Positions 24,378 through 32,770 of a stretch of DNA of 64,000 bases are shown one piece after another. Source of the DNA: an uncultured Lentisphaeria bacterium (lineage in GTDB: Bacteria; Fidelibacterota; UBA8477; JABMPR01); assembly GCA_964508765.1 (NCBI GenBank), contig CAZDVD010000004.1, positions 66,784 to 130,783 of the forward strand, read 5' to 3'. Each line of letters begins with the position of its first letter. Position 1 is the first letter of the stretch. The position numbers and the translations under genes are program-made. The notes beneath the pieces are model-generated. The model did no database searches. It was not told where the DNA came from and saw nothing but the letters and a program-made list of their open reading frames with translations.

Positions 24378-24632
24378 ATGAATATGAGTGATGAAAAAAA
24401 GTGGGTTGAACTTCGGACTGTTGAAGGTGATATTACTGCTGAAATGCTTCGTGGTGCCCTTGAAAATGCTGATATCCCTTGCGAAATTAAACGCAGTATG
24501 CTGGCCTCTGGATTGGGTGCTCATTCTGTCTCCCTGGCAGGAAACCAAGCCACCCTTATGGTCCCTGAAGAAAATCTGGAAGCAGCCGAAGCCGTTTTGG
24601 AAGCCATCGATTTTGAACCAGGAGAAGAATAG
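24378..24632 (+). CDS. DUF2007 small protein (putative signal-transducing protein)
   Basis: 84 aa. The pattern WVELRTVEGDITAEMLRGALENADIPCEIK resembles DUF2007. Confidence 0.5.
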   Translation: MNMSDEKKWVELRTVEGDITAEMLRGALENADIPCEIKRSMLASGLGAHSVSLAGNQATLMVPEENLEAAEAVLEAIDFEPGEE

Positions 24633-24710
24633 GTTTCGATTAGCTCAAATCTAACTGCTCCCCACGGTTAGAGATGCAAATTATCCAAGAAATCAATTCT
24701 CACTGAGAAA

Positions 24711-25280
24711 CCCATGATTTCAATCATGGGCAGGTGTCCAGATCCAATAGCAACCGCAACCATTTTAATGGTTTATTAGTAGTTTATGGTTTTCCATTAA
24801 CCTTTCATATTCTTCTAAGAAGGTCATGGTTCGATGATGTTCTTGTTGATTCTGGATATAGTATTCGACCTTGCCCACAGCGGATTCACTTACTGAAAAT
24901 CCTCCATAACCTACTTGCCAGGCAAATTTAGCATGGATCATATCATTCTGATTTACCCAATGAAATGATTCACCTTTGATCGATTTCATTACTTGAGCAA
25001 TAGAAAGCTCCCTGGGCAACAAGAACAACGCATGGATGTGGTTACTTGTGCCGTTTATACTCCTTACCCCACAGCCTGTCTTCTCCATTTCTTGCTGGAT
25101 ATGTAAGAATAGTTCTTTTCGTATATCATCCTTTATCAATGACCTGCGCCCCTTGGTTCCAAATACGCTGTGTATCCATATCCTAGTTAGTGAGTGGCTC
25201 ATCTTGGTGTATCTCCTTTAAACCGTTGAAACGGTTTTCGTTTTTGGGGGCATATTTTACCCCACGATTAAAATCGTGGG
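24711..25280. mobile_element. IS200-like minimal element or RAYT unit bounded by near-identical hairpins
   Basis: The left hairpin CCCATGATTtcAATCATGGG (24711-24730) and right hairpin CCCACGATTaaAATCGTGGG (25261-25280) have the same architecture and differ by one compensatory pair. Additional hairpins AACCATTttAATGGTT (~24760) and AAACCGTTgAAACGGTTT (~25222) lie inside the element. Confidence 0.5.
24765..25202 (-). CDS. tnpA: IS200/IS605-family Y1 (HuH) transposase / REP-associated tyrosine transposase-like
   Basis: 145 aa. The HuH motif HIHALF is present and the overall TnpA_IS200 pattern fits, with YxxxQ in the C-terminal half (YYIQNQQEHH). Confidence 0.8.
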   Translation of the reverse strand: MSHSLTRIWIHSVFGTKGRRSLIKDDIRKELFLHIQQEMEKTGCGVRSINGTSNHIHALFLLPRELSIAQVMKSIKGESFHWVNQNDMIHAKFAWQVGYGGFSVSESAVGKVEYYIQNQQEHHRTMTFLEEYERLMENHKLLINH

Positions 25281-25537
25281 TAGCGATTCCCATTTATTAG
25301 TTATTCTGGAATTCCAAGCTATAAAGCTTGGTGTTCTAACCGTATTTTGCATGGAATGAGACTAAATTTGGGATTGTGGGTTAGCTAAGCCCTTAAAATA
25401 TAATCATGAAAGCCACCGTTTCAATTATGAGCTGATTATTCCCAAAAAACATACTTAAGAGCTTCCTTTTTTTCATGAAAGTGGTTTTACTCTGCATGCC
25501 CTTTTCAAAGTTGCCTGAACGATGTCCAATAAACGTC

Positions 25538-25593: not shown

Positions 25594-25827
25594 ATGAAAA
25601 AACTATCAACTCGGGCAACGGTTTATCTGGAGCCCACTATTCACAAAGCTTTGAAGTTAAAAGCAGTAGAGACATCCCTCTCTATTTCCCAGATTATCAA
25701 TGATGCCTTGCGTTCTGATTTATTTGAGGATGCAGAAGATCTGGAAACTTTTCAGAATCGAATTGATGAGCCCTCATTGGATTATGAGACTTTTGTTCAG
25801 GAATTGAAGCGAGATGGCATTCTATAA
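25594..25827 (+). CDS. type II antitoxin (ribbon-helix-helix, ParD/RelB-like)
   Basis: 77 aa, located immediately upstream of the RelE/ParE toxin and overlapping it by 14 bp. The N-terminal ATVYLEPTIHKALKLKAV resembles an RHH domain. Confidence 0.6.
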   Translation: MKKLSTRATVYLEPTIHKALKLKAVETSLSISQIINDALRSDLFEDAEDLETFQNRIDEPSLDYETFVQELKRDGIL

Positions 25828-26071
25828 GATTGAATTTAAAAAATCGGTCAAAAAGGATCTTAGACACCTTCCCAAAAATGATATTGTTAAAATTTTAGAC
25901 CGCATACATAGATTGTCCACCAACCCTAGACCTCAGCAATCAAGAAAATTGTCCAGCCAAGAAAAATATCGTTTACGGCATGGGAAATATCGGATCTTGT
26001 ATGAAATCCGAGACCAGTTATTGCTTATTACAATTGTAAAGGTTGGCCATAGAAAAAATATCTATCAATAG
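25814..26071 (+). CDS. RelE/ParE family toxin
   Basis: 85 aa. YKIEFKKSVKKDLRHLPKNDIVKILDRIHRL...RLRHGKYRILYEIRDQLLLITIVKVGHRKNIY is the classic RelE/ParE pattern. Confidence 0.75.
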   Translation: MAFYKIEFKKSVKKDLRHLPKNDIVKILDRIHRLSTNPRPQQSRKLSSQEKYRLRHGKYRILYEIRDQLLLITIVKVGHRKNIYQ

Positions 26072-26130: not shown

Positions 26131-27390
26131 ATGCCGCAAAAAGTACAACGTGTAAAAGGTGTCAATGACATACTCCCTGGTGAGACGAAACAATGGCAAG
26201 CCCTGGAATCAGTTGTGAAGCATGTCATGGATAGCTACGCTTTTGGTGAGATTCGTCTGCCCATTTTTGAAAAAACTGAGCTCTTCGCCCGGGGTGTTGG
26301 TGAAGATACTGATATTGTTTCCAAGGAAATGTATTCCTTTACGGATATGAGCAAATCATCTCTGACTTTGAGACCTGAGCTTACAGCAGGTGTTGTACGC
26401 AGCTATATTCAGAACAATCTCCAGCAGATTTCACCAGTACAAAAGCTTTGGTATGAGGGACCTATGTTCCGCCAGGAACGTCCCCAGAAAGGACGCTATC
26501 GTCAATTCTGGCAATTTGGGGCAGAAGCCATTGGTTCACCCAATCCTGAACAGGATGCCGAGATGATCGCCCTTTTTTATGCCATTCTCAAAGAGTTGGG
26601 TATTGAGAAATCAGTGACCCTTAAAATTAATAGTGTGGGTGATAGTGAAAGCCGGGCGATTTATCGTCATTCGCTACAGGAATATCTACGACCACAGCTC
26701 AGCTCACTTTCTGAAACCAGTCAGAAACGTTTTGAATCAAACCCACTACGAATTCTAGACAGCAAAGCACCCAATGACAAAGAGCTTGTGAAAGATGCTC
26801 CGAAAATTCGCGAATGTCTCAATGAAGCATCAGCAGCACATTATTCCGAAGTCCTGAAAATGCTTGAAGCCATGGACATACCTTATGTTCAAGACGACTT
26901 ATTGGTGCGTGGATTGGATTACTACACCCACACCATTTTTGAATTCACCAGTGATGCTCTCGGTGCACAGGATGCCATCTGTGGCGGTGGACGCTATAAC
27001 GATCTGGTCAAGGAGTTGGGTGGACAAGATGTACCTGCTATTGGCTGGGCCTCTGGCATTGAAAGGCTCCTTCTGGTTGTGGAAGCGTTACAACCTCTGA
27101 AAACCGATTCTGGATTGGACATTTTCCTTACTGTTCAGGGTGAGGCTCTGAGAGTTCAAGCACCAAAACTTATTAATGCATGGCGAAGCGCTGGATTGAA
27201 GTGTGACATGGACACCCTACGTCGAAGCATGAAGGCTCAGATGCGGGAAGCGAATCGTCAGAAAGCACGTTATGTGGCTATCCTCTGGGAAGAAGAATTT
27301 GGACAAGGCATCGTGCAGCTCAAGAATTTCGAAACGGGTGAGCAGGAAGCTGTTGCTTTTGATGATGTGGTCGATGTTGTCCAGGGATAG
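26131..27390 (+). CDS. hisS: histidine--tRNA ligase
   Basis: 419 aa with class II aaRS motifs and the HisRS-specific N-terminus RVKGVNDILPGE. Confidence 0.9.
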   Translation: MPQKVQRVKGVNDILPGETKQWQALESVVKHVMDSYAFGEIRLPIFEKTELFARGVGEDTDIVSKEMYSFTDMSKSSLTLRPELTAGVVRSYIQNNLQQISPVQKLWYEGPMFRQERPQKGRYRQFWQFGAEAIGSPNPEQDAEMIALFYAILKELGIEKSVTLKINSVGDSESRAIYRHSLQEYLRPQLSSLSETSQKRFESNPLRILDSKAPNDKELVKDAPKIRECLNEASAAHYSEVLKMLEAMDIPYVQDDLLVRGLDYYTHTIFEFTSDALGAQDAICGGGRYNDLVKELGGQDVPAIGWASGIERLLLVVEALQPLKTDSGLDIFLTVQGEALRVQAPKLINAWRSAGLKCDMDTLRRSMKAQMREANRQKARYVAILWEEEFGQGIVQLKNFETGEQEAVAFDDVVDVVQG

Positions 27391-27397
27391 CAACATC

Positions 27398-27535
27398 ACG
27401 TCTTTGCGAGGAGCCCTTCGACTGCGCTCAGGACAGGCTCCGCGACGAAGCAATCTCGGATTCGAGATCGCCGCGCTTCCTCAACTCTTCGAGTTGATTC
27501 GCTCGCGATGACAATTCTCTTTTTTATGTGTGAGA
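27398..27535. repeat. intergenic inverted-repeat element ('LRFARND'-type extragenic repeat), copy A
   Basis: It shares GCAATCTC..ATTCGAGATCGCCGC and ATAGCAACATC with copy B at ~32540-32770. Its termini GTCTTTGCGAGGAG and TCGCTCGCGATGACA are mutual reverse complements. Confidence 0.5.
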
Positions 27536-32535: not shown

Positions 32536-32770
32536 CATTGCATGAGTAGTCATTGCGAGGACACCGCTTTAGGCGGGGGACGTGGCAATCTCTATTTTCG
32601 AGATCGCCGCAGTCCTTACACTCCCTCGCGAAGACAGTAAACAAGGACATTGTGCTTGTCGAAGGGTTTCATCAGATAGCAACATCCTCGATGACAAAGA
32701 GTCGACGTTCCGCTCACGCTTCGTCCCTCGACTCCGCCGGGATGACACATGCTCAGCGTGACGACTTAAT
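32536..32770. repeat. intergenic inverted-repeat element, copy B (two sub-units)
   Basis: AGTCATTGCGAGGACACC ... CACTCCCTCGCGAAGACAGT form inverted termini. It shares CGAGATCGCCGC and ATAGCAACATC with copy A. Confidence 0.5.

Follow-up and report, generated by a model that had tools for sequence, protein, structure and literature searches.

The 64-kb stretch of DNA analysed here (the window), which comes from a marine Marinimicrobia genome, carries on its minus strand a small element whose single gene, tnpA (24765–25202), encodes a 145-amino acid HUH/Y1 transposase that is apparently intact and, by its motifs, of the subclass 1.2 type. The element adjoins a DUF2007 gene (24378–24632) on one side and a ParD-like/ParE pair (25594–26071) on the other, with hisS (26131–27390) beyond the pair; no tnpB partner is found among the window genes at the locus. 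The initial annotation of this sequence had drawn attention both to the lack of a TnpB partner and to the position beside a toxin–antitoxin pair near hisS, and both observations stand.

The gene is bracketed by two outer hairpins, A on the left (upstream; 25261–25280, minus strand) and A' on the right (downstream; 24711–24730, minus strand), each with a stem of nine perfect base pairs and a loop of 2 nt, of the form CCCAYGATT-NN-AATCRTGGG. In the sense of tnpA, hairpin A reads CCCACGATT-TT-AATCGTGGG (CCCACGATT-AA-AATCGTGGG as read in the window) and hairpin A' reads CCCATGATT-GA-AATCATGGG (CCCATGATT-TC-AATCATGGG in the window), the full sequences being CCCATGATTTCAATCATGGG at 24711–24730 and CCCACGATTAAAATCGTGGG at 25261–25280. 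At stem position 5, T-A in one is exchanged for C-G in the other, with pairing preserved. Both hairpins lie exactly where the initial annotation had put them, and the compensatory change that it mentions is present. They are the sole two matches to the pattern in the 64 kb with two mismatches allowed (0.00 expected from 100 shuffles), and when folded as single-stranded DNA (ssDNA) they reach −7.2 and −8.5 kcal/mol, a stability never matched by shuffled sequences. A literature search for the literal hairpin arms returned unrelated primer matches only, and an Rfam scan of the whole window reported one tRNA and no match at the element.

The additional hairpins that had been predicted inside the element are also present. 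Hairpin B (inner left; 25220–25237, minus strand) reads AAACCGTTTCAACGGTTT in the sense of tnpA (AAACCGTTGAAACGGTTT in the window) and lies just 5' of an AAGGAG ribosome-binding site (RBS), whilst hairpin C (inner right; ~24759–24774, minus strand), which reads AACCATTAAAATGGTT (AACCATTTTAATGGTT in the window), covers the last codons and the stop codon. The outer hairpins thus take the form of a 9-bp palindrome, CCC-NNNN-TT/AA-NNNN-GGG, nearly alike at both ends, and the inner ones that of a shorter AACCNTT/AANGGTT palindrome; all four are perfect in the window. The module opens with hairpin A, which a spacer of ~25 nt separates from hairpin B; the RBS and tnpA follow, and another ~25 nt lie between hairpin C, over the stop codon, and the closing hairpin A'.

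The TnpA protein

The TnpA protein matches the Pfam Y1_Tnp family (PF01797) with an E-value of 4e-23 and 82.2 bits (cutoff 23) over profile positions 3–121 of 121. When it is aligned with IS608 TnpA, its HuH motif (H55-I-H57) falls on the HuH motif there and the sequence Y115-I-Q-N-Q119 on YIENQ, bearing out its earlier description as a 145-amino acid HuH Y1 transposase. The match to the NCBIfam IS200 family (NF033573) is borderline, scoring 56.7 bits where the cutoff is 55. Compared with solved structures as a single sequence, the protein gave weak matches to IS608 and ISDra2 TnpA. A profile built from an alignment of 37 tnpA homologs and searched against the PDB matched ISDra2 (2xm3, 2e-15), IS608 (2a6m, 7e-14) and Sulfolobus TnpA (2f4f and 2ec2), with E-values ranging to 2e-11; neither TnpA_REP nor any other structure was found in this search at E ≤ 1.

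Nine residues are invariant in the 37-homolog alignment (H11, H55, H57, K76, F93, W95, Y99, H123 and E131) and a further five are at least 90% conserved (Q96, Y115, I116, Q119 and H122). The conserved positions extend into a C-terminal tail, residues 121–145 (H122, H123, E131; MTF.EEY). The window protein has the motifs NHIH, WQ and YIQNQQEHH, and the family as a whole [DN]H[IV]H, WQ and Y-I-x-x-Q-x-x-H-H. The published signature of subclass 1.2 consists of [DN]H[IV]H, WQ and Y---Q--HH (YIKNQKEHH) in proteins of ~148 amino acids (Quentin 2018, Table 1; PMC6006769). Judged by these signature motifs, its length and its tail, TnpA is a class 1 (IS200/IS605) transposase of subclass 1.2. Membership of class 2, that of the REP-associated tyrosine transposases (RAYTs; REP, repetitive extragenic palindrome), was considered and rejected on the tyrosine motif, which is YIQNQQEHH and not YIxxNP, and on the structure matches. 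The initial annotation had offered a minimal IS200 element and a RAYT with its cognate REPs as alternatives: the former is largely borne out by the class 1 profile matches, the occurrence of the module in unrelated contexts and the existence of tnpA-less derivatives, the latter disfavoured by the tyrosine motif and the lack of a TnpA_REP match. Among the alleles that were compared, tnpA has a ratio of nonsynonymous to synonymous divergence (dN/dS) of 0.12–0.18, which argues that the protein has been kept functional.

Subclass 1.2 has been described as near to, yet distinct from, IS200 TnpA, with a short core, a conserved C-terminal tail of ~30 amino acids and a low copy number; it was reported to have no REPs and generally no IS200-type terminal structures, and to occur in Cyanobacteria and Bacteroidetes (PMC6006769). 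The proteins studied here resemble this description in length (145 against ~148 amino acids), motifs, tail and low copy number. They differ from it in being bracketed by conserved hairpins, in having tnpA-less derivatives and in their hosts, which are Marinimicrobia, KSB1, Cloacimonadota, Latescibacterota, Ignavibacteriota and Phycisphaerae (with few contigs per cluster). The aberrant 'IS200 Group 3' of Bertels 2017, which shows no duplicates and abundant flanking 16-mers (PMC5581495), may be identical with the subclass found in the window. No later work on subclass 1.2 was found in the literature searched.

The hairpin module in other genomes

To see how far the hairpins accompany the gene, we compared the contigs of seven homologs that had been picked by protein only (P0010, P0015, P0003, P0019, P0025, P0035 and P0056) and that are drawn from Marinimicrobia, KSB1, Cloacimonadota and Phycisphaerae. 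Hairpins A and B lie upstream of tnpA in all seven. Hairpin A' is recognisable downstream in each except P0025 (locus L142), where no hairpin is seen downstream of tnpA, and P0019, P0025 and P0056 lack hairpin C, which is conserved at the stop codon in L006, L012, L016, L054, L097 and L145. The module occurs in at least six unrelated contexts across lineages, namely hisS/DUF2007, hsdS/hsdR, cysS, batA/batD, methylase/ResIII and purB/purS, and at nine further loci that were ascertained by hairpin. In a distant homolog from Phycisphaerae, 40% identical, the hairpin sequence is altered together with the protein: the stem there reads CCCGGCGTT-GA-AACGCCGGG, with the frame kept and the inner hairpin changed too.

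Covariation was assessed in a set of 29 aligned hairpins, none of which had been selected by the strict search pattern. In this alignment 88% of stem cells pair, compared with 30–45% when the 3' partners are slid by one to three columns, and both sides have changed in 34 cells, where shuffled alignments gave 12 ± 2.8 such cells (none of 500 shuffles reached 34). Pairing of the hairpin stem is under selection. The CCC/GGG base and the T-A closing pair show no variation among the 29. A longer, 11-bp stem had been suggested by a pattern-ascertained set of hairpins, but was rejected when its two outer pairs proved mostly unpaired in this less biased set.

Two of these genomic settings deserve mention in their own right. 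In two Marinimicrobia (L012, 5575–13642, and L097) the subclass 1.2 module lies inside a type I restriction operon, with hsdS and hsdR on either side, and is co-oriented with it, and in L142 (1102–6020) it sits between an N6/N4 methylase and a ResIII helicase, again co-oriented with the operon. L142 also has five tandem half-sites (agcccacggcatYatcgt) at ~2830–2990, directly upstream of a full hairpin A and the start of tnpA, in what looks like local amplification of one hairpin arm. Hairpin clusters or arrays are likewise found beside tnpA in L006, L088 and L105.

The wider distribution of the hairpin was surveyed with a strict-pattern scan of one genome per species, which returned at least 120 tiles; the source genome of the window is not among the tiles listed, and the counts per genome are lower bounds. 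Among the matches listed, the tiles come overwhelmingly from bacteria of the FCB (Fibrobacterota–Chlorobiota–Bacteroidota) group, with some archaea. Eleven contain a tnpA homolog, and in each of these the hairpin adjoins the gene; the other 109 lack tnpA and are heterogeneous. A perfect B-type hairpin lies near hairpin A at 32 of the 146 hairpin-A sites among the matches listed, mostly at a distance of 23–29 nt, where 2.3 would be expected.

Some of the tnpA-less sites retain the architecture of the complete module. In L034, L080, L058, L136, L099 and L025 we found miniatures of 150–240 bp with the structure A-25-B-(13 to 170 nt)-C-25-A'. A Latescibacterota family of such miniatures includes two members on different contigs of one metagenome-assembled genome (MAG; L070 and L127), with relatives in L120 and L086, and the similarity among these four extends from ~6 nt 5' of A to ~30 nt 3' of A'. 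The miniatures are hosted by Latescibacterota, Bacteroidota and Ignavibacteriota; none was found in the 64-kb window. The presence of tnpA-less A-B...C-A' copies in other genomes argues that the module has been mobilised. We also considered whether the miniatures might be symmetric, like the REP doublets known as REPINs, and rejected this, as their left and right spacers are not reverse complements; since the two halves are non-symmetric, they appear to be deletion derivatives of the whole module and not REPIN-type doublets.

Nor can all 109 tnpA-less tiles be taken as REPs of the window's family, since some are canonical IS605 ends and others species-specific repeats. An example of the former is L042 (1915–3533), from the Bacteroidales UBA1736 contig DCIC01000136.1, which is a canonical IS605-type element with a 131-amino acid tnpA product containing YIENQ and a 380-amino acid tnpB product. 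It has exactly CCCACGATTGAAATCGTGGG as its upstream (left-end) hairpin, ~70 nt upstream of tnpA. The context of this hairpin, 'tcat-hairpin-ttttcccgc', recurs in L023, L047, L063, L068, L089 and L104 (Micrarchaeota, Nanoarchaeota and others), and tiles of the L042 type, flanked as 'tcat-A-ttttcc', are mostly archaeal or DPANN. The shared hairpin and context imply that two transposase subclasses appear to use the same hairpin.

Species-specific repeats are illustrated by the Cloacimonadales chromosome OY782781.1 (L077, 4438–4986; also L061, L066 and L087), where the hairpin lies inside a repeat unit of ~265 bp. The unit has a second small hairpin, CCCCAACGGGG, occurs in three tandem copies and is found in at least seven tiles of the 3-Mb chromosome; no tnpA lies within the hairpin tiles of OY782781.1. 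Other multi-tile genomes among the matches listed are those of a Cytophagales MAG (five contigs) and of IGN16 (four contigs). In the Micrarchaeia KM4345-25 tile L050, two copies of the hairpin with ~17-nt flanks, inverted with respect to each other (18–37 and 2309–2328), bracket a gene for a 709-amino acid Ski2-like helicase, an arrangement that could represent two insertion sequence (IS) ends or a composite.

The only Marinimicrobia tiles among the matches listed, L048 and L097, both have tnpA, and no extra hairpin A was found in the 64 kb outside the element or in the 20-kb flanks of three relatives to which the search was extended. The dispersal envisaged in the initial annotation is therefore absent from the window and from its relatives' flanks but present, without tnpA, in many other FCB genomes. 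The use of hairpin abundance to tell a REP from IS ends, as also proposed there, turns out to rest on a false dichotomy, as both patterns are seen, in different genomes.

Boundaries and history of the window copy

The extent of the element could be gauged from a close relative, L147, that lacks it. A segment of 900 bp (24633–25532, minus strand), holding tnpA and all of the hairpins, is cleanly absent from L147, so the bounds first given to the element (24711–25280, 570 bp) were too narrow. The empty site in L147 reads GAGAAATAA followed directly by ACGTCTTGACG, where the window reads GAAGAATAG, the 900-bp segment ending in CCAATAA, and then ACGTCTTGACG. The segment is associated with a short junction repeat, AATAR: AATAG on the left (24628–24632, which includes the stop codon of the DUF2007 gene) and AATAA on the right (25528–25532), where L147 has a single AATAA at a seamless empty junction. 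This repeat, seen at one junction pair only, is compatible with either a target/cleavage motif or a microhomology deletion. The proteins flanking the site are 89–98% identical between the window and L147 (98% for a radical-SAM protein), and L147 still has ParDE.

Using the DUF2007 neighbour as query, we assembled a set of 18 syntenic loci. The full element is present in the window, in L163 and in L149/L006. In L146, the closest relative, whose flanks have ~96% nucleotide identity to the window, tnpA is interrupted in frame at codon 114, immediately ahead of Tyr115, and A' is degraded. L160 has hairpins only, with the same 'cactgagaaa' flank as at A' in the window, and tnpA is absent from L147, L159 and a further eight loci in which hisS directly follows DUF2007. 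The ParD/ParE pair varies independently of tnpA, being present in the window, L146, L147, L159 and L160 and absent from L006/L149, L148, L150–L155 and L157; its variable presence suggests that the DUF2007/hisS spacer is a small hot spot for accessory DNA.

One of the full copies is that encoding P0010, whose TnpA is 71% identical to that of the window and which lies in the same hisS/DUF2007 spacer in GCA_014382775.1 (L006/L007), between flanking proteins of 79–96% identity. Synonymous divergence (dS) between the window and L006 is saturated, at 1.39 for tnpA and 1.0–1.7 for the flanks, with a dN/dS of 0.14 for tnpA. Three decayed copies of hairpin A lie within the 900-bp segment outside the intact pair, and all align with L006: a half-site at 24660–24669 (CCCCACGGTT) with a nearly intact downstream hairpin there, a half-site at 25368–25382 (TTGGGATTGTGGGTT) with a half-site, and a degenerate full copy at 25408–25432 (GAAAGCCACCGTTTCAATTATGAGC, 76%) with a hairpin in which eight of nine positions pair. 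Because the two copies are syntenic, have saturated dS and share aligned decayed hairpins, they appear to be orthologous and old. The comparison with L146 (3388–3825, against 24765–25202 in the window) gave a different result. Here tnpA has a dS of 0.64 and its flanks 0.04–0.30, a two- to fivefold excess, with a dN/dS of 0.13. Simple vertical co-divergence was therefore rejected, and the excess suggests replacement of the element allele by recombination, or a locally raised mutation rate.

A probable minimal tnpA-only transposon and the alternatives to it

Taken together, these results make it likely that the locus is a minimal, tnpA-only ssDNA transposon of the IS200/IS605 type, long resident where it is found, and not a domesticated RAYT/REP system. 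To judge from the sequence comparisons, the module has demonstrably moved as a unit over evolutionary time and spawned miniature derivatives: it is found in unrelated contexts, it has tnpA-less derivatives, and at this locus it is present in some genomes and absent from others, all of which argue for mobility of the unit across lineages.

How such an element would move can be proposed by analogy with IS608 and ISDra2, which belong to the IS605 group, have solved TnpA–hairpin complexes and use subterminal hairpins as recognition elements. A TnpA dimer would bind the hairpins on one strand when that strand is single-stranded, for example as lagging-strand template, and would cut beside them using Tyr115 and a metal site at H55/H57. 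The element would then leave as a single-stranded circle, with a seamless donor site behind it, and re-insert elsewhere. Miniatures of the A-B...C-A' form, which lack tnpA, would be mobilised by the same TnpA. The window copy appears to be old, single and slowly decaying in its Marinimicrobia lineage, inherited mostly vertically in the DUF2007/hisS spacer, ringed by decayed hairpins and in the process of being lost by close relatives, of which one carries a nonsense allele, one hairpins only and several an empty site.

Several observations weigh against this interpretation. The ends of the 900-bp indel do not fall at the intact hairpins, and the AATAR junction repeat, a hint as to the cleavage site, could equally reflect a microhomology deletion. 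That the element has kept its place in lineages so far apart that their synonymous sites are saturated is RAYT-like and not IS-like. The exact TnpA is found in eight contigs but in one context only, no paralog comes close to identity (82% for the next cluster) and no second copy of the element is present within the 64-kb window; on these grounds there is no evidence of recent transposition in the lineage. Of the 109 tiles without tnpA, many represent other elements, either IS605-type ends or species-specific repeats, so that not all of them count as evidence for the family.

IS200 proper is ~700 bp in length and has a left-end hairpin. The window element shares with IS200 and other tnpA-only elements its single small Y1 tnpA, the lack of classical inverted terminal repeats, hairpins near both ends, very small size and often low activity. 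It differs in having two hairpins per end, the outer pair being near-identical perfect palindromes conserved across phyla, in a hairpin B that stops short of the RBS and does not sequester it, and in a transposase that falls in a separate subclass, barely above the NCBIfam IS200 cutoff. IS608 and ISDra2 supply the best structural relatives of the TnpA family, their seamless excision fits the clean L147 site, and the IS605 group is further linked to it by the hairpin of L042; the differences are the lack of a tnpB here and an AATAR repeat confined to one junction pair. The miniatures resemble miniature inverted-repeat and palindrome-associated transposable elements (MITEs and PATEs), which are non-autonomous derivatives of IS200/IS605 elements, in that units of 150–240 bp keep both ends without tnpA at different loci of one genome, but they are seen in other genomes and not in the window.

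An alternative that we doubt is that the locus is an immobile fossil, a former IS200-like unit with decayed ends in which the intact open reading frame is simply a relic not yet degraded. The three decayed hairpin copies inside the 900-bp unit, the lack of recent copies, the L146 allele with its stop just before the catalytic tyrosine and its degraded A', and indel ends lying away from the intact hairpins would all be expected of such a relic. Against this, the window copy has four perfect proximal hairpins and retains every catalytic and family-invariant residue, and a dN/dS of 0.12–0.14 even against the closest alleles is unexpected in a long-dead gene.

RAYT/TnpA_REP proteins and their REPs or REPINs were reportedly described by Nunvar in 2010, by Bertels and Rainey in 2011 and by Ton-Hoang and Messing in 2012. 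The element resembles such a system in its single-copy Y1 gene between copies of the same palindrome, extra palindromes nearby, long vertical persistence and, in some genomes, dispersal of the palindrome. One might accordingly propose that the host has domesticated the gene and keeps a single-copy TnpA to process or spread the hairpin as a REP, the flanking hairpins making up a 'REPtron'. Confinement to one locus, the synteny with L006 at saturated dS with decayed hairpins shared at equivalent positions, purifying selection (dN/dS ~0.14), the hairpin clusters beside tnpA in L006, L088, L105 and L142 and the many tnpA-less sites, with several tiles per genome in OY782781.1, the Cytophagales MAG and IGN16, all fit this proposal, as does the description of 'IS200 Group 3' (no duplicates, abundant flanking 16-mers; Bertels 2017, PMC5581495). 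It is nonetheless unlikely. The protein is of class 1, without YIxxNP and without a match to the TnpA_REP structure, and the foot of the hairpin in the window's family is AR-CCC, where canonical REPs have GT[AG]G. No dispersed copy is found in the 64 kb or in the 20-kb flanks of relatives, and the miniatures, which are asymmetric and include B and C, look like deletion derivatives and not REPINs. The gene is moreover dispensable in close relatives, and the nonsense allele of L146 together with the absence of the element from L147 argues against a fixed function of benefit to the host. The RAYT/REP proposal thus captures some of the behaviour of the element but fails on protein class and hairpin type, and is not supported as a statement of family membership.

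Least probable by far is that the hairpins are ordinary terminators, insulators or host-factor sites and not transposase substrates: the plus strand of hairpin B scores as terminator-like and A' is followed by TTTC, but the scan of the window found terminators and promoters at chance frequency (2 against 1.5 and 5 against 4.1 in shuffles, respectively), which gives no grounds for assigning the hairpins a regulatory role, and the 20-nt palindrome accompanies the tnpA family across unrelated operons and phyla, changes with the protein in the distant homolog and is the left-end hairpin of a canonical IS605 element.

The minimal-transposon interpretation of the window locus can be extended, more tentatively, to subclass 1.2 as a whole. 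The subclass might make up a family of its own, very widespread and composed of minimal ssDNA transposons, that spans the FCB superphylum and beyond, has matching miniatures and double-hairpin ends and holds its outer palindrome, CCCACGATT-NN-AATCGTGGG, nearly constant across phyla. Canonical IS605 elements, archaeal ones included, have this palindrome too. Were the subclass such a family, an unusually rigid protein–hairpin code and possible cross-mobilisation between transposase subclasses would be implied, and the family would stand, in evolutionary terms, midway between selfish IS200 elements and RAYT-like residents present in single copy.

The element family and the protein subclass are already known. 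What appears to be undescribed in the literature searched (ISfinder was outside the search) is the conserved structure of the double-hairpin ends, their constancy across phyla, the sharing of the hairpin with IS605 and the existence of subclass 1.2 miniatures. The published summary of subclass 1.2, which reports no such ends (PMC6006769), is at odds with the conserved hairpins and with the derivatives that lack tnpA; the contradiction concerns a descriptive property and not the sequence definition of the subclass. The single published description of this subclass found no DNA partner for it, a gap in what is known of Y1 transposases for which the double-hairpin ends and miniatures now offer a candidate substrate; short oligonucleotides would suffice to test its activity directly. 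In the element, traits of an IS (a mobile unit, miniatures, and loss or pseudogenisation in close relatives) are joined by RAYT-like ones (one copy only, vertical residence over a long time and hairpins clustered locally), a mixture that bears on how transposases drift towards domestication. For annotation, the 20-nt palindrome marks such elements and what is left of them in phyla that have been little studied and are mostly uncultured. On an absolute scale, this is a small IS-family element that embodies no new biological principle.

One further feature of the window lies outside the element. Directly 3' of hisS, at 27395–27520, is a GC-rich segment of ~125 bp amid AT-rich surroundings, with imperfect terminal inverted repeats (CGTCTTTGCGAG ... 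CTCGCGATGACA) and spurious open reading frames such as 'GACPERSRRAPRKDV'. A 27-nt part of it recurs 5 kb away, at 32597–32623, with 78% identity, and the segment may belong to another miniature repeat family.

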